A stretch of 64,000 nt of DNA. Source: Candidatus Micrarchaeota archaeon. Lineage in GTDB: Archaea > Micrarchaeota > Micrarchaeia > Anstonellales > Anstonellaceae. The stretch covers positions 77,259 through 141,258 of the forward strand of contig CAYMOY010000001.1 in the NCBI GenBank assembly GCA_964392435.1, given 5' to 3'. Made by a program: the position numbers and the translations under genes. Positions 5,479-49,572 of the stretch are shown here, in pieces. Under the pieces are notes generated by a model. The model was not told the origin of the DNA and made no database searches. It saw only the letters and a list, made by a program, of their open reading frames with translations. Each line of letters starts with the position of its first letter. Within the stretch, counting starts at the first letter, position 1.

Positions 5479-6563
5479 TGGCAAGCTCGAACATATTCAG
5501 GTCTTCAAAAGGGGAGAACAGGATATTCCGCGACGAGTCGGCCCTTCTTCCCGACTTTTTGCCAGATGAGCTTCCTGGCAGGGAACGCGAGATACGCGAG
5601 CTTGTCTATTGCCTTCAGCCTGCGGCGGAAAAGCGCCAGCCCGAGCACGCGCTTCTCATCGGAACGCCTGGCACAGGCAAGACATCCTCCGCGCGCTTTG
5701 TGCTCAAACAGCTCTCGGAGTACAGCCAGCGCCCTCTTCCCGTCTACATCAACTGCTGGGAGTATTCTAGCCGCTTTGCAATATTCTCCTTCCTGGCAGC
5801 CTCGCTTGGCGAGCCCATGCCCCGCCGAGGCATTGCGGCTGATGAGGTGTTTTCCCGCATTGTGGAAATAGCGAAAAAAGAGGAGCGGATACCCATTTTG
5901 GTGCTGGACGAGGCAGACAGGCTGGAGTCATCCGAAGAAGGCGTGCAGGTGCTCTACGACTTGTGCCGCGCAAACGAAATACACTCGCTCAAAACCGGCG
6001 TGATTGCGATAACAAACGATGAAGAATTCCACACCAGGCTGGATGCCCGCGTGCGCTCCTCATTCGTGCAGCACACGCTGAATTTCCCGGCATACACTGT
6101 CCCGCAGCTCAAAGAAATAGTCTCGCGGCGCGCCAAGCTTGCCTTTGCCCCGGATGTGCTTGATGCCGAAGTCGTCCCCCTCTGCGCGGCAATAGCATTC
6201 AAGAACGGCGGGGACGCGCGCGTTGCCCTCTCGCTGCTCTTGTCCGCTGGCAAGGCTGCCGAGCGGGAAAATGCGCCTCGCGTGTTGGTCTCCCATGTGC
6301 GGCAGATGGAAGGGCAGGCGCTGGGGGCATCCACAGTGAAAGCAGAGCGCAAGATTGCCGACCTTGACGAGATAGACCAAAAAATAGTGGAGGAGGCAAA
6401 AGGCGGCATAGAGTCAGGCCAGCTCTATTCAAGGCTAAAGAAATTCGTGCAGGAGCGCGCGCTTCGCAACAGAATCGAGCGCCTTGAGAAAAACGGGATA
6501 CTTGAGGTTCAAAGCAAAACGCTAGGGAAGGGCAGGACAAGGCTCATCAAGGTGAAAGGGTAA
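5475..6563 (+). CDS. cdc6: Orc1/Cdc6 replication initiator
   Basis: LPGRERE, Walker A GTPGTGKT, Walker B LVLDEAD, GDARVAL, C-terminal winged helix. Confidence 0.92.
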   Translation: MMASSNIFRSSKGENRIFRDESALLPDFLPDELPGREREIRELVYCLQPAAEKRQPEHALLIGTPGTGKTSSARFVLKQLSEYSQRPLPVYINCWEYSSRFAIFSFLAASLGEPMPRRGIAADEVFSRIVEIAKKEERIPILVLDEADRLESSEEGVQVLYDLCRANEIHSLKTGVIAITNDEEFHTRLDARVRSSFVQHTLNFPAYTVPQLKEIVSRRAKLAFAPDVLDAEVVPLCAAIAFKNGGDARVALSLLLSAGKAAERENAPRVLVSHVRQMEGQALGASTVKAERKIADLDEIDQKIVEEAKGGIESGQLYSRLKKFVQERALRNRIERLEKNGILEVQSKTLGKGRTRLIKVKG

Positions 6564-6564
6564 T

Positions 6565-7800
6565 CTAGCCAGCCTTTATCTTCTTAGCAGCCTCTTCAAG
6601 TTTCAGCATCTCTTCCTTCCCATTCGTAAGATTCCGCAGGGTGACTTTTCCCTCCTTTTTCTCCCGCTCGCCAACCACCACAATCCACTCGCAGCAGCCA
6701 GAAGCGTATTCCATCTGCTTTTTCAGGTTCCTCCTGTTCAGGTCGGTCTGCGCTGCGATGCCTGCGGCTCGAAGCTGTGATGAGACCTGCAGCGCATAGG
6801 GGTAAAACTCGTCTTTTGCAGCGGCAACGAAAACCCCGGTTTTTTCCTGCCCTGCCTTTCCCATCAGGGCAAGCAGCCGCTCTATCCCAAGCGAAATCCC
6901 AACCGCCGCGTCGCCCTGCCCGTACATGGCAAGCAACCCGTCGTATCTTCCTCCGCCTGCGACCGAGCCTATCTCCTCGCTCAGCTTTATCTCGAATATC
7001 GCGCCAGTGTAATAGTCCAGTCCGCGCACAAGGGAAAAGTCCAGCTCGACTTTTATCTTGTCCGAGTACTCCGAAACCAGCACCATGATGTCTGCCAGGT
7101 CCTTGGCGGCCTCGGGGGAATAAGTCATTGCCACCCTCAGCCTGCTCCCGTTATTTCCCGATGCAGTCAACTCGGCTAAGAGCTTTTTAGCCTTGCCTTC
7201 CTCAGCCCCAAGCTCCACGAACATCCTGATGGCAGCTTCATCACCTATTTTCTCCCGCTTGTCCAAAATGCGCAGTATCGCCCCTTCCTTTCCGGGCAAG
7301 AGCTTGGCGGCAATGGCCGAAATTATCCTCCTGTCGTTGATGCGCACTACCCCGCCAGAAAAGCCAAGCTTTTCAAGTGCGGTCCATGCGACTGCGATAA
7401 GCTCAGCCTCTGCCCGCACCGAGGGGCAGCCGATTATGTCCGCGTCAGCCTGGTAAAACTCGCGGAACCGCCCCTTCTGCGGCTCCTCGCGGCGCCAGAC
7501 AGGAGCAACGCAGTACCTTTTGAATGGCTTTTTGAAGGTGTTGGAGGATGCCACGCGCGAAAGCGGGACAGTCAGGTCAAAGCGCAGGGCAAGCCTGCCA
7601 TCATCCACCCTGAAAAGCTGCCCCTTTATCTCCTCGCCGCACTTTTTCTCCAGCACTTCGGCTGTTTCAAGCGCCGGCGTATCCATGGGCGCAAAGCCGA
7701 ACAAGCGGTAAACCGACCGTATCGTTCCTATGGCAAACTCCCGCCGGTTCATTTCATCCGGCAGAAAGTCCCGCATCCCTTTTGGCGCAGAGTAGTCCAT
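6565..7800 (-). CDS. hisS: Histidyl-tRNA synthetase
   Basis: PKGMRDF, LRFDLTVPL, RREEPQKGRFREFYQAD, VRGLDYYTG, GGGRYD. Confidence 0.97.
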   Translation of the reverse strand: MDYSAPKGMRDFLPDEMNRREFAIGTIRSVYRLFGFAPMDTPALETAEVLEKKCGEEIKGQLFRVDDGRLALRFDLTVPLSRVASSNTFKKPFKRYCVAPVWRREEPQKGRFREFYQADADIIGCPSVRAEAELIAVAWTALEKLGFSGGVVRINDRRIISAIAAKLLPGKEGAILRILDKREKIGDEAAIRMFVELGAEEGKAKKLLAELTASGNNGSRLRVAMTYSPEAAKDLADIMVLVSEYSDKIKVELDFSLVRGLDYYTGAIFEIKLSEEIGSVAGGGRYDGLLAMYGQGDAAVGISLGIERLLALMGKAGQEKTGVFVAAAKDEFYPYALQVSSQLRAAGIAAQTDLNRRNLKKQMEYASGCCEWIVVVGEREKKEGKVTLRNLTNGKEEMLKLEEAAKKIKAG

Positions 7801-23877: not shown

Positions 23878-23975
23878 GCAATGGATTGCGGGATATAGCA
23901 TTTTAAACAATCCCGCAGCATTCACAGTCGTGGGGCAGACTGCCCTATAGCTCTTGCTTGGAAGGGGGTTTTCAT

Positions 23976-25490
23976 ATGGTGGAACAAAAGAAGCGTCCTG
24001 CTGCCCGAGACGGCACAATCGACTCTTATGTCTATGACAATGAAGGCATACAGGTGCTTGCAAAAATCACTGCCAAGAGCGGCGATTACGTCCCCTTATA
24101 CGAGGTCAACGTCCGCGAGCTTTCCGAGGGCACGCGTTTGGTCCTAAACCAGCTCAAAGGGGAACTTATCACCACGGTCAAGCTGGACATAACCGATATA
24201 ATGGACCCGAAAAAGCGCGATGATGTGCGCAAGAAATTCGAGGTCCGAGCCAATTTCCTTCTGGGCAAGCATTTTCCCACGCTTTCAGAAGCTGACAAGA
24301 AGGTGCTCACCGCATACCTGCTGCAGAATTCTCTTGGCTTAGGCGAGATAGAATCCTTGATGCATGACAATAATCTTGAGGAGGTGGCCATCAATTCCGC
24401 CTCAGAGCCGATTTGGGTCTACCACAAGAAGCACGGCTGGTGCAAAACCAACATACAGCTCAAAAGCGAGGAATCCATATATGACATATCCGCCATGATA
24501 GGCAGGAGGATAGGCAAGCAGATAAACGTTCTCAATCCGGTCATGGATGCGCACCTTGCAACCGGCGACCGTGTCAACGCCACGCTGTATCCGGTCTCTT
24601 CCTTTGGCAACACAATAACCATCAGAAAATTCTCCCGCAACCCCTGGACAATACCCTATCTTATCGAGCTCAACTGTATCTCTTCGCAGGTTGCCGGCCT
24701 CATTTGGCTTTGCATGCAAAACGAGATGTCGCTTTTGGTCTCAGGAGGCACAGGCTCCGGAAAAACATCGTTCCTCAACGCAATGGCGTGCCTCATTCCG
24801 CCCAACCAGCGCGTGATTTCCATAGAGGACACCCGGGAGCTGACCCTGCCCAACTTCCTGCAATGGGTGCCCATGGTCACCCGCGAGCCGAACGCCGAGG
24901 GCAAGGGCGAGATAACCATGCTTGACCTGCTGGTCAATTCTCTGCGCATGAGGCCCGACCGGATAATATTGGGTGAGGTGCGCAAGCAGCGCGAGGCGGA
25001 AATACTCTTCGAGGCGATGCACACCGGGCATTCGGTTTATGCCACGCTGCACGCTGACAATGCGGCGGAGACAATCACCAGGCTGACCACCCCGCCCATT
25101 TCCATGCCGCGAGAGACACTCTCTGCGCTGGCTGGCATTGTAGTCCAGTTCAGGCACCGCAGGCTCAATGTGCGCCGCACTCTTGAATTTGCAGAGGTGC
25201 AAAAAGGAGGGGACATAAACACCCTTTATCGCTGGGATGTGAAAAGCGACAGGATAAACGAGGTCGGAAAGATGATCACACTGTCCCAAACGCTTTCACT
25301 TTACTCCGGCCTGACCCAAAAGGAAATAGACCAGGATGTTTCTGACAAGGCTAAGATATTTTCCTGGATGGTCAAGCGCGGCTTGAAAAGCGTGGACACC
25401 GTTGGCACCATAGTTTCCCAATACTATGTCAACCCGGATGACATACTTTCCCTGGCTACCAAAAATGCAGAATGGCATGGCCAGGAATGA
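23976..25490 (+). CDS. Type IV pilus assembly ATPase (TadA/VirB11 family)
   Basis: GGTGSGKT, SIEDTREL, LRMRPDRIILGEVR, TGHSVYATLHA. Confidence 0.95.
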   Translation: MVEQKKRPAARDGTIDSYVYDNEGIQVLAKITAKSGDYVPLYEVNVRELSEGTRLVLNQLKGELITTVKLDITDIMDPKKRDDVRKKFEVRANFLLGKHFPTLSEADKKVLTAYLLQNSLGLGEIESLMHDNNLEEVAINSASEPIWVYHKKHGWCKTNIQLKSEESIYDISAMIGRRIGKQINVLNPVMDAHLATGDRVNATLYPVSSFGNTITIRKFSRNPWTIPYLIELNCISSQVAGLIWLCMQNEMSLLVSGGTGSGKTSFLNAMACLIPPNQRVISIEDTRELTLPNFLQWVPMVTREPNAEGKGEITMLDLLVNSLRMRPDRIILGEVRKQREAEILFEAMHTGHSVYATLHADNAAETITRLTTPPISMPRETLSALAGIVVQFRHRRLNVRRTLEFAEVQKGGDINTLYRWDVKSDRINEVGKMITLSQTLSLYSGLTQKEIDQDVSDKAKIFSWMVKRGLKSVDTVGTIVSQYYVNPDDILSLATKNAEWHGQE

Positions 25491-25565
25491 GCCGGGCCTT
25501 AAGATGCGCATTGGCATCAGGGAAGGGCAGGCGTTTGCCTTTGCCCCTCAGCCGGATGCTATCGC

Positions 25566-28500
25566 GTGAAGGAGAATATTCGCATGGCGGCCAATGACAT
25601 TTTCCCCAGTTTCGTCGAATGCAGCCGGCAGGCTCGTGAAATCGAGCGCAAACTGCTGCCAGTCAAGCCTTCGCAGATTTCAGGCAAGCTCCGCCCGGAA
25701 GGCTCCACACAGATATTTCCCCGCGAGTTTGAGGAATACACCGTTGCTTACCTTGTTTCCGAGGCGCAAAAAGTAGAGCGCAAGCTTTTCGCCGCCAATT
25801 ACCAATCGGCTCCAAATGTCTCCGTGGCGCAAGCTTCTTCCAAGGTTGAGCTTGGGCAGAAAGTGGCAGATGAGCTGGGCCAGTTTGCCTCAGGGGCAGC
25901 CCAACAGCCTGGCTATCAAACCACGCCCAAGGTGCCAGGCATTCCCGCCAAAAAAGATGCTATCTGGGGCGGGGCAGGTGCTCAGGCTCAGCCAGAGGGG
26001 CCATCCTCGGGGGATGAAAAAATTTCCCCGCCAGCATTGCCATACCAGCAGGGCATTCCATCCGAGGTCCGCATTGCCAAGGAAGCCGAACTTGAGGCCG
26101 AGGCGAAGATGGCAAACGAGTCCGCCCATCACCCTGCGCAATTTGGGGGATATGGAAGCGGCGAGCCTGGCGATGCTTCGCGCAAGCTGCGCTTACAGGA
26201 CCAGCCCTCCTCGTCCGGTCTGATGTCCTCTTCAAAGCTTTCTCCAAGGCTCAGGGCTATAATCGAGGAGAAGCTGAGGAAAGAGGAACAAGCCGCCCAG
26301 GATGCGCCAGTGGAAATAGAAAAAGCATCTTATGAAAAAGAGGAGCAAGAAGAAAAGAATGAAGAGCCTCCCGTGCTCTCCTCGCGAGAGAGGCTGTTGC
26401 GGAAATTGCAGCGCGAAAGGCAGATTAGGGAGGGCGAGGCTCTGCTTCAAGGGCAGGAAAGGCAGCCTGCAAAAGTGCTTCCAAGAAAACTGCAAGAGCC
26501 TGCCGCTGGAGATGAAGAACTGCCTGAGCAAGAAGAGCAGGGGCAGCAGCCAGAGCAAGAGGGGCGGGAAGACTTGCAAAGGCCCCCTGAGGATGAGGAG
26601 GAGATTCAGGAGCAGGAAAGGCAGCCTGCCAGAGTGCTTCCAAGAAAACTGCAAGAGCCTGCCGCTGGAGATGAAGAACTGCCTGAGCAAGAAGAGCAGG
26701 GGCAGCAGCCAGAGCAAGAGGGGCGGGAAAACCAGCAAGAAGAGCAGGAGGTTTCAGGGCAGGCAGAAGGGGCGGAAGAAGAAACCCCCTCGCAAGTGGA
26801 GCAGCCGCTCGAGGTTGCCTCTGCAAAGGCAAGTGCCCCTGCCAAAAGCTCTATTTTGCAAAAGCAGCCTTTGGCATATGGGCAGGTGGCGCAAAAGGGC
26901 GCGTCCGCGCTCCCACCATCATCCCTAAGTTCTGGCAGAATACTCATAAAGCCCATTTTTGCCGGGCAGGAAAACGAGCAGGATGAAAACCAGGGGGCGC
27001 GGGACGATGGGGCGGAAAAAAGGATGGAGCGCATCTCACGCATAGTGCGGGAGCTGTCCCCGGACAGGTACAAGGCGCAGGCAATAGCGAAAAAACCAGA
27101 CGCCTCATCCGAAAAAGGCGATGCAAAGCCTGGCGAACCAGCTGCGCCTTTGCGGATGGAAAAGCGGCCAACCGCAAAACCGGTCCTGAAGAAAAAAGCC
27201 AAAATTCAAGTGAATGAGCAGCAGCCTTGGGAAGAGGCGCAAGAAGAACAGCAGGAGCCCCCATCAGATGCGGAAGGGCCGCAGGGGCAGGAAAACCCGC
27301 AAGAGGAGGCGCAGGAAGAGTCCGAGGTACGGCAAAGGCTCGGCTGGAACCAGCCTCAAGCGAAAAAAAAGCTGGCGCCAAAAGTTTCTGGGAAAAGACA
27401 GGGCGAATTGGCTAATGCGAAGAGAAAGAATTTGCCTGCTGGGGCGCAACAGCAGAAGAAGGCGGGAAAAGCGCAAAAGTCTTTGCCTGCGGCAAAGGAG
27501 CCTTCTGGGGGGAAAATAAGGTCCCAAGACCAGGGCGGTTTCCCTAAGAAGCAGCAGGTGGCTTTGCAAAAGCAGTCAAAATCGCCCCAAACCGCCCGGG
27601 CAAGGCAAGCGGCATCGCCCTCCAAAGAAGTTTTCCAATCCAAATCCCCTCCAATGCAATCAGCAAAGCGGCAGCTGCCACAGCCCCAAAAATCCGTGGC
27701 ATACGCACAACGCGGCACTCCTGTTCAATATCAGGATGAAAGACGCCCTGCCGCATCTTCGAGCCAACCATTGCCGTCCCGCCAAGTTGCGCCTGCTGCA
27801 AACAAGCCTCCAACCGTTTCTCGACCAAGCGTGGCTGCAAGTGCGCGACCAGTTTCACGGCTCTCGCCATATTCCGCGCCGCCTGCCAGGCCTGCCTCCG
27901 GTCCCTCCCTGGGGCGGCCCATCATGCGCCAGGTCCAAGCTCCAACAGCCTATCGCACTTCTCCCCAGCCAATTCCAAGGGCAGGATCCAGGCCGCGCAT
28001 TCTTCCGGGGGGTGCGCAACAGATGGCGCCACAGACATATCTGCCTCCAAGAAGAACGATAATCCGGCCGCAAGCTTTGGGGCAAGAATCTTTGGCTGTG
28101 GGGCAGCCAGAAGAGGATTCGCAACCTATGCGGGAAACTGGCGGATTGCCAAAAAGGCGCGCAGCATATCCGCAGCCTGGCAGTGGCGAGGCTCTGCTTC
28201 AAGGGCAGGAAAGGCAGCCTGCCAGAGTGCTTCCAAGAAAACTGCAAGAGCCTGCCGCTGGAGATGAAGAACTGCCTGAGCAAGAAGAGCAGGGGCAGCA
28301 GCCAGAGCAAGAGGGGCGGGAAAACCAGCAAGAAGAGCAGGAGGTTTCAGGGCAGGCAGAAGGGGCGGAAGAAGAAACCCCCTCGCAAGTGGAGCAGCCG
28401 CTCGAGGTTGCCTCTGCAAAGGCAAGGCTCAGCGCCATATCGCAGGTTTCGGGTCTCAAGCCCAGGAAAAACGTGCTTGACGAGCCGGTGCAAAAGACGC

Positions 28501-28967
28501 CTGAGCAGCTTGAGGAAGAAAAGCGCATTTCTCAAAAAGCGCAGGTGCTCTCGCAGATGGAGGGGCAAAAGCAGCACGAGATATCAGGTTCAGCTTCCCT
28601 TCCTTTGGAAGAGGAAGACTTGGAAGTGCCAAAGCCGCCGCCAGATGATTCCGAATCCGGGCAGCCGGATTACGATACTGCAAAATACGGGCTGCGGCGC
28701 AAGATGCAAGAGGATGACATCCGGGCGAAGACCAAGGAGGAGGTTGAGGCGATAATGGAGGGCTATGCAAAAGATAATCTTGTATGGCTCTATGAAATTT
28801 ATTCCATGGGCGGGATGCCCCGCGAGGACTTCCTGCAAAAAGTAAAGGAGAAAATGGCCGAGGAAAAAATCGCCCTGCCGCAAGTTGGGGGTGAGGAGCC
28901 ACCTCCGCCTTCCAATCCCGCCCTTGCTAATTTGGGCAAGGAAATAGACAAGAGATATAAAAAGTAG
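25566..28967 (+). CDS. Giant low-complexity Q/E/P/A-rich protein with internal repeats inside the pilus operon
   Basis: 1133-aa uninterrupted ORF; short folded-looking termini; start may be ATG at 25584. Confidence 0.8.
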   Translation: MKENIRMAANDIFPSFVECSRQAREIERKLLPVKPSQISGKLRPEGSTQIFPREFEEYTVAYLVSEAQKVERKLFAANYQSAPNVSVAQASSKVELGQKVADELGQFASGAAQQPGYQTTPKVPGIPAKKDAIWGGAGAQAQPEGPSSGDEKISPPALPYQQGIPSEVRIAKEAELEAEAKMANESAHHPAQFGGYGSGEPGDASRKLRLQDQPSSSGLMSSSKLSPRLRAIIEEKLRKEEQAAQDAPVEIEKASYEKEEQEEKNEEPPVLSSRERLLRKLQRERQIREGEALLQGQERQPAKVLPRKLQEPAAGDEELPEQEEQGQQPEQEGREDLQRPPEDEEEIQEQERQPARVLPRKLQEPAAGDEELPEQEEQGQQPEQEGRENQQEEQEVSGQAEGAEEETPSQVEQPLEVASAKASAPAKSSILQKQPLAYGQVAQKGASALPPSSLSSGRILIKPIFAGQENEQDENQGARDDGAEKRMERISRIVRELSPDRYKAQAIAKKPDASSEKGDAKPGEPAAPLRMEKRPTAKPVLKKKAKIQVNEQQPWEEAQEEQQEPPSDAEGPQGQENPQEEAQEESEVRQRLGWNQPQAKKKLAPKVSGKRQGELANAKRKNLPAGAQQQKKAGKAQKSLPAAKEPSGGKIRSQDQGGFPKKQQVALQKQSKSPQTARARQAASPSKEVFQSKSPPMQSAKRQLPQPQKSVAYAQRGTPVQYQDERRPAASSSQPLPSRQVAPAANKPPTVSRPSVAASARPVSRLSPYSAPPARPASGPSLGRPIMRQVQAPTAYRTSPQPIPRAGSRPRILPGGAQQMAPQTYLPPRRTIIRPQALGQESLAVGQPEEDSQPMRETGGLPKRRAAYPQPGSGEALLQGQERQPARVLPRKLQEPAAGDEELPEQEEQGQQPEQEGRENQQEEQEVSGQAEGAEEETPSQVEQPLEVASAKARLSAISQVSGLKPRKNVLDEPVQKTPEQLEEEKRISQKAQVLSQMEGQKQHEISGSASLPLEEEDLEVPKPPPDDSESGQPDYDTAKYGLRRKMQEDDIRAKTKEEVEAIMEGYAKDNLVWLYEIYSMGGMPREDFLQKVKEKMAEEKIALPQVGGEEPPPPSNPALANLGKEIDKRYKK
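26433..26570 (+). repeat. Intragenic repeat copy 1 (138 bp)
   Basis: Near-identical to 28185-28322; encodes GEALLQGQERQPAKVLPRKLQEPAAGDEELPEQEEQGQQPEQEGRE. Confidence 0.9.
26612..26833 (+). repeat. Intragenic repeat copy 2 (222 bp)
   Basis: Appears identical to 28205-28426 by manual comparison. Confidence 0.9.
28185..28426 (+). repeat. Intragenic repeat copy 3 (242 bp)
   Basis: 5' end matches copy 1; the remainder matches copy 2. Confidence 0.9.
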
Positions 28968-28995
28968 TGCCTAACAATTAATATAGAGGGAATGC

Positions 28996-29931
28996 ATGGC
29001 TGAAAACAAGGCAGGTCTGGCAAACGCTTCAAATTCAAAATCAAAGGTCTCCCAGCCGCTTATCACCCAGCCAATGAGGGATGTGGAAGGGCCGCAGGAC
29101 CCCTCCCAATTCAGGAATCTCATGCGTTCGCTGGCATCCCATTTTCCTGACTTGCGCAAGGACCTGGTGCGCGCAGACATGCAGTATACGCCAGCCGGGT
29201 TTGTCCAGTCCGCCCTCATAAATGCAATAACAATAGCCCTGGTCCTGCTCGTAATCGCCTATCTTTTCCTGCGCGGGCAGGAAATGGCGCCATTTCTGAT
29301 ACTGCTTCTTGCCCCAGTGTTTCTTTTCCTGGCTTTCTTCTACGCGATGTATTTTCCGAAGGCAAGGGCCCGCATGAGGGCAAAGCGCATGGAACAGGAG
29401 CTGGTGTTTGCGGGAAGGCACATGCTAATCGAGCTCAAAAGCGGAGTGCCCCTGTTCGACGCTATGCTGGGCATCTCTCAGGACTACGGCGAAATATCTG
29501 TGGAGTTCAACAAGATTGTGGAAAAAGTGACGCTGGGCGTTCCGCTTGGCGTGGCGCTGCACGAGGTTGCGGAGACCAACCCCTCCCAGTACTTCAAGCG
29601 GGTCATCCTCCAGGTGGCGAACTCGCTTGCATCAGGCTCGGATGTCGCAGCCGCCCTGGAAGCCGCGCTGGACCAGATTTCGCGCGAACAGGCAATAGAG
29701 CTTAAGGCATACGGGCAGAAGCTCAACCCCATTGTGATGTTCTTCATGATATTCGGGATAATCCTCCCTTCGCTTGGCATAGCATTCCTGATAATACTGG
29801 TGTCCTTCCTGGGCTCATCAGTCTCATTCGGCCCAACCGCGCTTTTCGGAGTGCTGCTTGCCATCGGGCTGGTGCAATTCATCTTCCTGACAATGGTTGA
29901 GGGTTCCAGGCCGAAGTTCGATATAGTATGA
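28996..29931 (+). CDS. Type II/IV secretion F-family (TadB/C) platform protein
   Basis: HMLIELKSGVPLF, EFNKIV...LGVPLGVAL, ELKAYGQKLNP, TM helices. Confidence 0.88.
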   Translation: MAENKAGLANASNSKSKVSQPLITQPMRDVEGPQDPSQFRNLMRSLASHFPDLRKDLVRADMQYTPAGFVQSALINAITIALVLLVIAYLFLRGQEMAPFLILLLAPVFLFLAFFYAMYFPKARARMRAKRMEQELVFAGRHMLIELKSGVPLFDAMLGISQDYGEISVEFNKIVEKVTLGVPLGVALHEVAETNPSQYFKRVILQVANSLASGSDVAAALEAALDQISREQAIELKAYGQKLNPIVMFFMIFGIILPSLGIAFLIILVSFLGSSVSFGPTALFGVLLAIGLVQFIFLTMVEGSRPKFDIV

Positions 29932-29940
29932 TGTGGTTCG

Positions 29941-31011
29941 ATGTCCAACGTTCTTTATGAAATGATCGGGCGGCTCTTCTCGCGCAGCCAGATGCGCAAG
30001 CTGGGGTTATTGCTTGAAACTTCCGGCATAAATTTCGTGCCAGAGGCATTCGCAGGCTTCATAGTGATACTTTCAGTTGTCCTATCCATTTTTACCTATC
30101 TGCTGCTCTCATCCATCTCAACCACCCGCAGTTTCATGTTCAGGCTTTCCTCAATGCTCTCGCCAGGCCTGACGCTCCAGTCGCCTGACTTTTTCCTCAT
30201 CGTTTCAGTTATTTTCTCAGTCCTGATTGCGACAGGATCGCTGCTGCTGGTTGTTTATGTCTGGCTGATGCTGCGGGCGGACAGCAGGCGCAGGAATGTT
30301 GAGGAGGTGCTGCCGGACTTCCTATCGCTTTCCGCAGCCAACGTTCGGGCGGGAATGACAATCGACCAGGCGATGTGGTATGCCGCAAAGCCCGAGTTTG
30401 GCATACTCTCGGTTGAAGTTGCTACGGTGGCGAAAAAGACATTCGGCGGGGTTCCGTTCAACCAGGCTGTCGACTACCTGACTGACAGGTTCAATTCCAA
30501 GTCAATCCGCAGGTCCGTGGCCCTCATCAAGCAGGGCATGGCATCCGGCGGGCAGCTTGCAGACATACTTGAGAGGACTGCGGAGGATGCCAGGCAGATG
30601 CATGTGCTCCAAAAGGAGATAGCCGCTTCGCTTCTGATGTATGTGATATTCATCGTCTTCGCAGGCGCCCTCGGCACCCCATTCCTATTTGCCATCTCCG
30701 GCAAGCTGGTGGGCATGCTGGAAAACGTGTTTGCCACGCTGCCAACCGACACTTCATCGTTTGCCGGCTCAATGCAGACACCCCTAATATCCGCGAGCCG
30801 CTCAGCAATCTCATCATCCGACTTTTTCCTCTTCACCATACTCTCATGCATAATGACCGCGATTTTTTCCGCTCTGATAATAGGGGTGATTTCCAAGGGG
30901 AGCAAAAGGGACGGCGTGCCTTACTTGCCATTCCTCCTGGTTGCTTCTCTGGCGATTTTCTTAATTGTCAGCGCCCTTCTGGACAGTTTCCTCTCCAATA
31001 TTTATGTATGA
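29941..31011 (+). CDS. Type II/IV secretion F-family (TadB/C) platform protein
   Basis: LPDFLSLSAANVRAGMT, GGQLADILERTAED, TM helices. Confidence 0.88.
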   Translation: MSNVLYEMIGRLFSRSQMRKLGLLLETSGINFVPEAFAGFIVILSVVLSIFTYLLLSSISTTRSFMFRLSSMLSPGLTLQSPDFFLIVSVIFSVLIATGSLLLVVYVWLMLRADSRRRNVEEVLPDFLSLSAANVRAGMTIDQAMWYAAKPEFGILSVEVATVAKKTFGGVPFNQAVDYLTDRFNSKSIRRSVALIKQGMASGGQLADILERTAEDARQMHVLQKEIAASLLMYVIFIVFAGALGTPFLFAISGKLVGMLENVFATLPTDTSSFAGSMQTPLISASRSAISSSDFFLFTILSCIMTAIFSALIIGVISKGSKRDGVPYLPFLLVASLAIFLIVSALLDSFLSNIYV

Positions 31012-41515: not shown

Positions 41516-41668
41516 GCCCCTGTAGCTCAGGGGTAGAGCGCGTGCATGGTAGAACCCTTTTTCCGCCTCCAGGCTAATGCGGCGAAAAAAGCGTTCACGG
41601 AAAACCTGTTGGTTCCGCGATTGGCTCCATCAAGCACGAGGTCGAGGGTTCAATTCCCTCCGGGGGCT
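41516..41668 (+). tRNA. tRNA-Thr(GGU) with 81-nt intron at 37/38 (41552-41632)
   Basis: Acceptor GCCCCTG/CGGGGGC; anticodon stem CGTGC/GCACG; T-arm GAGGG-TTCAATT-CCCTC; BHB core ATGG/CCAT; U73; no CCA encoded. Confidence 0.93.
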
Positions 41669-49240: not shown

Positions 49241-49310
49241 AGAAACTTGGGGGAACAATGTCTCAAACAGGGGAAAAATTGCATGGGATAAACTGCACTT
49301 TTAATAAAAA

Positions 49311-49514
49311 TGGGCCGGAAGAGATTTGAACTCTCGACCTTTCGATGCCAAAACCTCCAGCGGGTTTTTCAGCGGTGTTCCGCCGCTTCCTCCCCACGCT
49401 TTGCGTGTGGATGGCGAATCTTGCGCCCTTTCCCTCTGGCAGTTTATCAGTCGAACGCTCCAACCAGGCTAAGCTTCCGTTGGCATTTGAAGATTCAAGT
49501 GCCATTACCGGCCC
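49311..49514 (-). tRNA. tRNA-Ile(GAU) with introns at 9/10 (31 nt, 49475-49505) and 37/38 (98 nt, 49347-49444)
   Basis: Spliced product GGGCCGG-TA-GCTTAGCCTGGTTGGAGC-G-TTCGA-CTGATAA-TCGAA-AGGTC-GAGAGTTCAAATCTCTT-CCGGCCC-A; both junctions form relaxed BHB motifs. Confidence 0.9.
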
Positions 49515-49572
49515 ACCAATTGGCTGGACAGGTTGTTTAGCCCATGATGATTTTAAAAAGCGTTGCTGGCGG

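Follow-up and report, generated by a model that had tools for sequence, protein, structure and literature searches.

In a Micrarchaeota-related (DPANN) archaeon, the gene for tRNA-Ile(GAU) is interrupted by a 31-nt insert between positions 9 and 10. The features of the gene and of its relatives make it highly probable that this insert is a genuine BHB intron, removed by the splicing endonuclease from an alternative fold of the precursor tRNA before the 5′ leader is taken off. We infer that cutting occurs, which enzyme acts and that splicing runs ahead of leader removal; the architecture of the gene, its conservation among relatives and the predicted pairings on which this reading stands are laid out below.

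The window, by which we mean the whole 64-kb stretch of DNA that was analysed, has an archaeal gene content (Orc1/Cdc6, a proteasome-SBDS-exosome cluster), and its nearest named relative places it with Micrarchaeota (NCBI: phylum Microcaldota, kingdom Nanobdellati). The tRNA-Ile(GAU) gene lies on the minus strand at 49514..49311, with three collinear exons within 204 nt (Table 1). Read on that strand, it consists of GGGCCGG TA, a first insert of 31 nt (ATGGCACTTGAATCTTCAAATGCCAACGGAA), the segment GCTTAGCCTGGTTGGAGCG TTCGA CTGATA, a second insert of 98 nt, and A TCGAA AGGTC GAGAG TTCAAAT CTCTT CCGGCCC A TTTTT. The limits that a first-pass annotation had assigned to the first insert, 49505..49475, are correct to the base. 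In silico deletion of both inserts leaves 75 nt, which ARAGORN folds as a tRNA-Ile(GAU) whose 7-bp acceptor stem is perfect and whose D-, anticodon and T-arms are normal. No second tRNA-Ile was detected within the 64-kb window by Rfam, the sole other tRNA being a tRNA-Thr(GGU) at 41516-41668. The collinear exons, which occupy neither separate loci nor a reversed order, set the gene apart from split and permuted tRNA genes, and the first insert, only 31 nt long and matching no Rfam intron family at gathering score or at E≤1, does not qualify as a group I or group II intron, whose catalytic cores span hundreds of nucleotides.

Table 1. Features of the tRNA-Ile(GAU) gene and its flanking sequence; coordinates are positions in the window.
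Feature	Coordinates	Strand	Description
Promoter-like A/T box CTTTTTAAAA	49551..49560	-	37-46 nt upstream of G1; relatives carry AAGCCTTTTTAAT at the corresponding place
5′ leader	49515..49529	-	segment UCCAGCCA (49528..49521, -14..-7) complementary to the D-loop
Exon 1: G1-G7 (acceptor 5′ strand), U8, A9	49506..49514	-	from sequence and ARAGORN
Intron 1, 31 nt, 9/10	49475..49505	-	hairpin UGGCA-C-UUGA/UCAA-A-UGCCA, then tail ACGG-AA
Exon 2: G10 to A37 (D-arm, anticodon-stem 5′ strand, anticodon GAU)	49445..49474	-	
Exon 2 segment UGGUUGGA	49466..49459	-	predicted leader partner in the splicing fold; C11-U13 pair with G3-G1
Intron 2, 98 nt, canonical 37/38	49347..49444	-	BHB with a central U33·U mismatch and a long inner helix; pairing read by hand
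Exon 3: A38 to discriminator A73	49311..49346	-	CCA not encoded
T run directly past A73	49306..49310	-	taken, from established knowledge, as a likely archaeal transcription stop

The first-pass annotation had also predicted that scanners would fail on this gene, which holds for both detectors tried, ARAGORN and the Rfam tRNA model. ARAGORN reports no gene on the unspliced sequence, either by default or with introns allowed, and recovers it only once intron 1 has been deleted. The Rfam model gives the unspliced gene 25.7 bits, below its gathering score of 29, and aligns to model positions 5-66 only. At gathering score it calls only tRNA-Thr in the window, and the tRNA-Ile gene emerges at E≤1 in truncated form, with an alignment that begins inside the intron because the intron tail ACGGAA (49475-49480, minus strand) mimics acceptor bases 4-9, CCGGUA.

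Every pairing put forward for the insert is found on the minus-strand sequence. Exon bases G1-G3 face C11-U13 as G·U, G·U and G-C. The central helix, in a 3-4-3 register, is made of C4-G, C5-G, G6-C and G7·A; the 3′ bulge is A-A-G10, the 5′ bulge is U8-A9-A, whose third base is the first base of intron 1, and the inner stem is UGGCA/UGCCA. The cuts that had been proposed, after the second base of each bulge, restore U8-A9-G10 and regain the cloverleaf exactly (ARAGORN), with predicted joined ends GGGCCGGUA^GCUUAG, also written GGGCCGGUA^GCUUAGCC, where ^ marks the junction. The two 3-nt bulges lie on opposite strands and read U8-A9-(A/U) and A-A-G10 in 27 of the 27 intron-bearing genes described below. 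As an internal control, the same second-base cutting rule, applied to intron 2 and to the intron of the neighbouring tRNA-Thr, yields their 37/38 junctions. When the 31-mer is shuffled 2,000,000 times, a fraction of 2.6e-4 reaches at least three of the four central pairs together with a 5-bp inner helix in register. The fold thus exceeds chance expectation, and the comparison with relatives, given below, is the stronger evidence. Because G7 faces an invariant A, the central helix falls short of the four Watson-Crick or wobble pairs of a strict BHB, and the 9/10 motif counts only as a relaxed one. The outer helix had been given as GGG/CTT; those pairs are present but weak, and the description was incomplete, since pairing between leader and D-loop provides 8 bp more. 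The complete outer helix thus consists of G1-G3:C11-U13 and the leader:D-loop duplex, in which variation is visible on one side only. The motif uses the acceptor 5′ strand, as the first-pass annotation had recognised, and with that strand occupied in the BHB, cutting requires a fold other than the cloverleaf. An alternative cut at 8/9, with a matching shift of the 3′ site, gives an identical mature RNA; this junction was rejected because its central helix is unworkable, G3 having to face a G.

When species-representative genomes were scanned with the T-arm and acceptor, at least 120 loci matched, and no 9/10 insert occurs among the matches listed. The nearest exon matches among the matches listed are L100 (Candidatus Micrarchaeota MAG SKW311), L025 (archaeon DeMMO2_26) and L063 (Micrarchaeota), all of which carry GGGCCGGTAGCTTAGCC, uninterrupted at 9/10. 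L100 has an intron-less allele (GGGCCGGTAGCTTAG) with identical exons, and its collinear genes show 63-75% amino-acid identity; since this value lies within the range of the intron-bearing relatives, we regard L100 as a close relative in which the uninterrupted allele occurs naturally. A metagenome scan, with a pattern that left 14-44 bases free to vary from GGGCCGG to the D-arm, returned 30 loci. Of these, 26 are tRNA-Ile(GAU) genes interrupted at the identical junction by 30-35 nt, and 4 are chance matches upstream of ordinary genes. Together with the window these amount to 27 genes and 20 distinct introns. Their collinear flanking proteins are about 40-81% identical to those of the window (tblastx), a divergence which indicates that the intron-bearing genes come from different organisms. 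Exact-protein look-up of the neighbour genes returned one 1.9-kb contig (SRR12133403), identical to the window and of no comparative value.

All 20 introns start with A or U, followed by U, and all 20 finish with ACGGAA, at positions that the search pattern had left free. In the proposed fold, the CGG of this tail pairs with C4-C5-G6, the A before it faces G7 and the final AA forms part of the 3′ bulge. The inner helix (alignment A1) comprises 11 pairs, 6 of which have compensatory changes on both sides, with 91-94.4% of cells paired; sliding the partners by 1-3 columns reduces pairing to 16-46%. Its covariation score was matched by 0 of 500 shuffles, a control that overstates independence, as the sequences are related. 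The search pattern fixed the exon sides of the central and outer helices, which therefore cannot show two-sided covariation, and support for them takes the form of the invariant intron tail and the exact 3-4-3 geometry. No paralogous 9/10 insert was detected in other tRNA genes with a covariance model of the intron and its flanks (R1) over 0.7 Mb, nor did a script run over about 1 Mb detect, in other tRNAs, a 9/10 insert with a tail complementary to acceptor bases 4-6. The 9/10 intron is kept without the 37/38 intron in L123 and L129, and the reverse holds in L100 and L025, from which we conclude that the two introns are independent.

When the 20 upstream bases are folded together with the 5′ part of the gene, the leader pairs with the D-loop in every intron-bearing gene. 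In the window the leader segment UCCAGCCA and its exon 2 partner UGGUUGGA form 8 bp, with pair probabilities of 0.84-0.996 in the ensemble fold. The relatives' leader motifs are GUCCAAUCA, AACUAGGC in another register, CUCAACC, and ACCAG abutting G1, so that the complementarity is reached by at least four different sequence or register solutions among the intron-bearing genes. UCCAAUCA differs from UCCAGCCA at two positions, and both differences are pairing-neutral (A-U to G·U, U·G to C-G). No leader complement to the D-loop is present in the intron-less L100, L025 and L063. The mean energy of the leader:D-arm duplex is -12.1 kcal/mol in 20 intron-bearing genes versus -5.9 kcal/mol in 84 insert-free genes (Mann-Whitney p=2e-9, a value that overstates independence because the genes are related); shuffled leaders give -7.75±2.7 kcal/mol. 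The promoter box is conserved upstream of the relatives' genes, and lies about 8-10 nt further upstream when the complement is at -14..-7 than when it is ACCAG at -5..-1 or in L100. The distance of the box from G1 tracks the position of the leader motif, and is smallest in the intron-less L100. The usual archaeal promoter spacing puts the transcript start near -15 for this box, just before the motif, so that, with a start inferred in this way, the leader motif would be transcribed.

Fold energies bear on the role of the leader. For the whole precursor without leader, the splicing fold has an energy of -67.8 kcal/mol, as against -81.5 kcal/mol for the most stable, cloverleaf-like fold; with the leader included, the corresponding values are -80.3 and -83.9 kcal/mol. 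The leader thus nearly offsets the cost of leaving the acceptor and D stems unformed. For the 5′ fragment with leader, the 3-4-3 model has an energy of -25.5 kcal/mol versus -28.3 kcal/mol for the most stable fold, and the 3-4-3 model without the leader helix has -10.2 kcal/mol. The most stable fold of this fragment favours a shifted central register (C4-G10, G7-C, U8-A) with 2-nt bulges, 2.8 kcal/mol below the 3-4-3 model; we rejected it as the likely substrate because the cuts that it requires would be asymmetric.

We propose the following route. The gene's own promoter would yield a transcript that begins with a leader of about 15 nt, and the 5′ part of this transcript, made some 150 nt before the acceptor 3′ strand, could fold first. 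Before or instead of the cloverleaf, an alternative fold would form in which leader positions -14..-7 pair with the D-loop and G1-G3 with C11-U13 as the outer helix, the CGG of the intron tail pairs with C4-G6 and the conserved A stands opposite G7 as the four-position central helix, and the intron hairpin serves as the inner helix, leaving U8-A9-A and A-A-G10 as 3-nt bulges on opposite strands. A splicing endonuclease, probably one of broad specificity such as the epsilon2 type known from Micrarchaeum, would cleave past the second base of each bulge, and an RtcB-type ligase would connect A9 to G10, the 37/38 intron being excised independently. The RNA would then refold to the cloverleaf, RNase P would take off the leader and CCA would be added. 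On a stronger version of this proposal, which we advance tentatively and with slightly less than even confidence, the splice site requires the 5′ leader as a cis-acting component: pairing of the leader with the D-loop would keep both the acceptor 5′ strand and the D-stem within the BHB fold, intron removal would have to precede RNase P, and leader, promoter spacing and intron would evolve as one unit, gained and lost together, as the intron-less L100 suggests.

The enzyme type is assumed from the lineage, given that no endonuclease gene was found in the window or in the relatives' loci. Pfam searches identified no splicing endonuclease domain among about 60 window ORFs, and tblastn with an approximate Methanocaldococcus jannaschii sequence as query gave no match in the window or in about 1 Mb of the relatives' loci; the gene is probably located elsewhere in the genome. 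Micrarchaeum (ARMAN-2) has many non-canonical tRNA introns, and its epsilon2 endonuclease cuts relaxed motifs in vitro (Fujishima et al. 2011, PMC3239211; Kaneta et al. 2018, PMC5829648).

The leader-assisted fold has to be weighed against another route, in which the endonuclease splices the insert from a cloverleaf-like precursor via a relaxed half-motif composed of acceptor stem, bulge and intron hairpin, and the leader:D-loop complementarity serves another purpose (delaying RNase P or folding) or is incidental. The full-length fold with an enforced acceptor stem is indeed 3.5 kcal/mol more stable than the BHB fold, and both epsilon2 and (alpha-beta)2 enzymes cleave motifs without one of the bulges (PMC3239211; PMC5829648). 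We nonetheless judge this route unlikely: no 4-bp helix would set its 3′ site (AA^G10) facing the 5′ site, it assigns no function to the invariant ACGG tail and the complementarity of that tail to the acceptor 5′ strand, and the leader complement is confined to intron-bearing genes.

Two further readings dispense with splicing altogether. A conserved and covarying hairpin would also suit a structural arm, and the 31 nt might accordingly be retained as an extra hairpin between A9 and G10 of the mature tRNA. Such an arm would disrupt the U8/A9/G10 core of the tRNA L-shape, and it leaves unexplained the ACGGAA tail, the exact 3-4-3 spacing and the leader complement; a close relative has the same exons free of the insert, and ordinary BHB introns occur in the same gene and in its neighbour, all of which makes retention very improbable. 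The gene might also be a decaying pseudogene, with a functional tRNA-Ile(GAU) elsewhere, which is in keeping with its not being called by scanners and with a view of the genome restricted to 64 kb. To this reading we assign the lowest probability, on account of the intact exons and perfect cloverleaf, the flanking promoter box and T run, the retention of the arrangement in 27 genes with flanking proteins about 40-81% identical (tblastx), and the presence of the 9/10 intron as sole intron in 2 of the 27. A BHB intron spliced from the alternative fold is the reading on which we base the considerations that follow.

If correct, it implies that an archaeal splicing signal can be built from the acceptor strand, the D-arm and the 5′ leader, and it predicts splicing before leader removal. 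U8, A9 and G10 are core positions that are commonly modified; with the intron placed among them, their modifications would wait for splicing. The existence of close relatives with and without the intron offers a clean case for intron gain or loss alongside change in leader and promoter spacing. As tRNA-Ile(GAU) reads the common AUU and AUC codons, its concealment also matters for annotation: both detectors miss or truncate the gene, so that genomes of this DPANN clade will appear to lack it. Incomplete DPANN tRNA sets have been observed, and manual searches urged (Kaneta et al. 2018, PMC5829648). Should 9/10 be uncatalogued, it would constitute a new insertion site that hides an essential tRNA, in a Micrarchaeota clade, from the scanners tried. 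One more non-canonical site would not by itself astonish a specialist; the conserved family, the leader-assisted fold, the order of processing and the effect on annotation add weight.

Several observations concern other introns and loci. The tRNA-Thr(GGU) gene (plus strand) contains an 81-nt intron at 37/38 (41552-41632), with a perfect 3-4-3 motif and the central helix AUGG/CCAU. The 5′ part of this intron (AGAACCCTTTTT-hairpin-AAAAAGCGTTCACGGAAAA) recurs in the tRNA-Ile anticodon intron of L025, and looser versions appear in L127, within the T-loop intron of its tRNA-Ile, and in L133, within intron 2. By sequence resemblance, this looks like one intron family across different tRNAs and positions, a situation reported for Thermoproteales. 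In L127 (Ga0180431_10018166, minus strand of locus 6413-6633) the tRNA-Ile(GAU) gene has three introns, at 9/10, 37/38 and about 59/60 in the T-loop. The anticodon-loop intron of tRNA-Ile is 98 nt long in the window versus 0-75 nt in the relatives, the excess apparently consisting of extra internal hairpins. Its helices display compensating changes between the window (CUGCCAG/CUGGAGG) and L122 (CCGUCGG/CCGGUGG), and L122, the one relative checked for the U33·U mismatch, is also mismatched at the same position. Among the genome loci, L017 (CAYIBO010000110.1) matches the T-arm and the acceptor 3′ strand, but in the 400 nt upstream no acceptor 5′ strand can be recognised; it may represent a tRNA gene that is split, permuted or heavily disrupted. 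Elsewhere in the window, a 1133-aa ORF without Pfam match (25566-28967, plus strand) stands between a T2SSE-type ATPase gene and two genes for T2SSF-type membrane proteins, and the region 23958-31011 looks like a pilus- or archaellum-like cluster.

Non-canonical introns in Thermoproteales and ARMAN lineages, which the first-pass annotation had mentioned, are documented (PMC4090602, PMC3239211). For Thermoproteales and other archaea, the Yoshihisa review (PMC4090602) names BHB sites at 3/4, 20/21, 22/23, 25/26, 29/30, 30/31, 45/46, 53/54, 56/57 and 59/60, and 9/10 is not in this list. Like those introns, the one described here is short and located outside the anticodon loop, has its splice sites in helix-flanked bulges, may coexist with a 37/38 intron, belongs to genes with up to three introns, and would be cut from a splicing fold that competes with the cloverleaf (PMC4090602). 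Unlike them, it places the acceptor 5′ strand in the central helix, with a conserved G·A at G7, and its outer helix combines the 5′ strand of the D-stem with the leader:D-loop duplex. Candidatus Micrarchaeum acidiphilum (ARMAN-2), in which 56% of tRNA genes are disrupted (PMC3239211; PMC12397907), shares the phylum of the window, judged by similarity to MAGs labelled Micrarchaeota; its examples in the main text of the ARMAN-2 study are at 37/38, 53/54 and 59/60, with no 9/10 intron in that part of the publication (PMC3239211).

The same tRNA, tRNA-Ile(GAU), bears an insert in its 5′ third in Bathyarchaeia and Nitrososphaerales (L010, L028, L054, L061, L078, L081, L101, L106), where the inserts fall within the D-loop, after position 15 or about 20, and are unrelated in sequence to the 9/10 intron. 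Matches from Bathyarchaeia and Nitrososphaerales commonly have introns in the D-loop or the anticodon loop, and L093 and L106 contain several inserts. With respect to the leader, the parts of the literature drawn on here contain no description of an ordinary 5′ leader recruited into a splice helix in a collinear gene. The closest parallel is provided by the split and permuted tRNA genes of Nanoarchaeum, Caldivirga, Thermofilum and Cyanidioschyzon, in which leader and trailer pair to build the splice-site helix (PMC4090602). In both systems, exon-flanking sequence absent from the mature tRNA is recruited into a helix beside the BHB. In split and permuted genes, however, one flank pairs with the other, bridging two transcripts or a permuted junction, whereas in the 9/10 case an ordinary leader would pair with the D-loop in cis.
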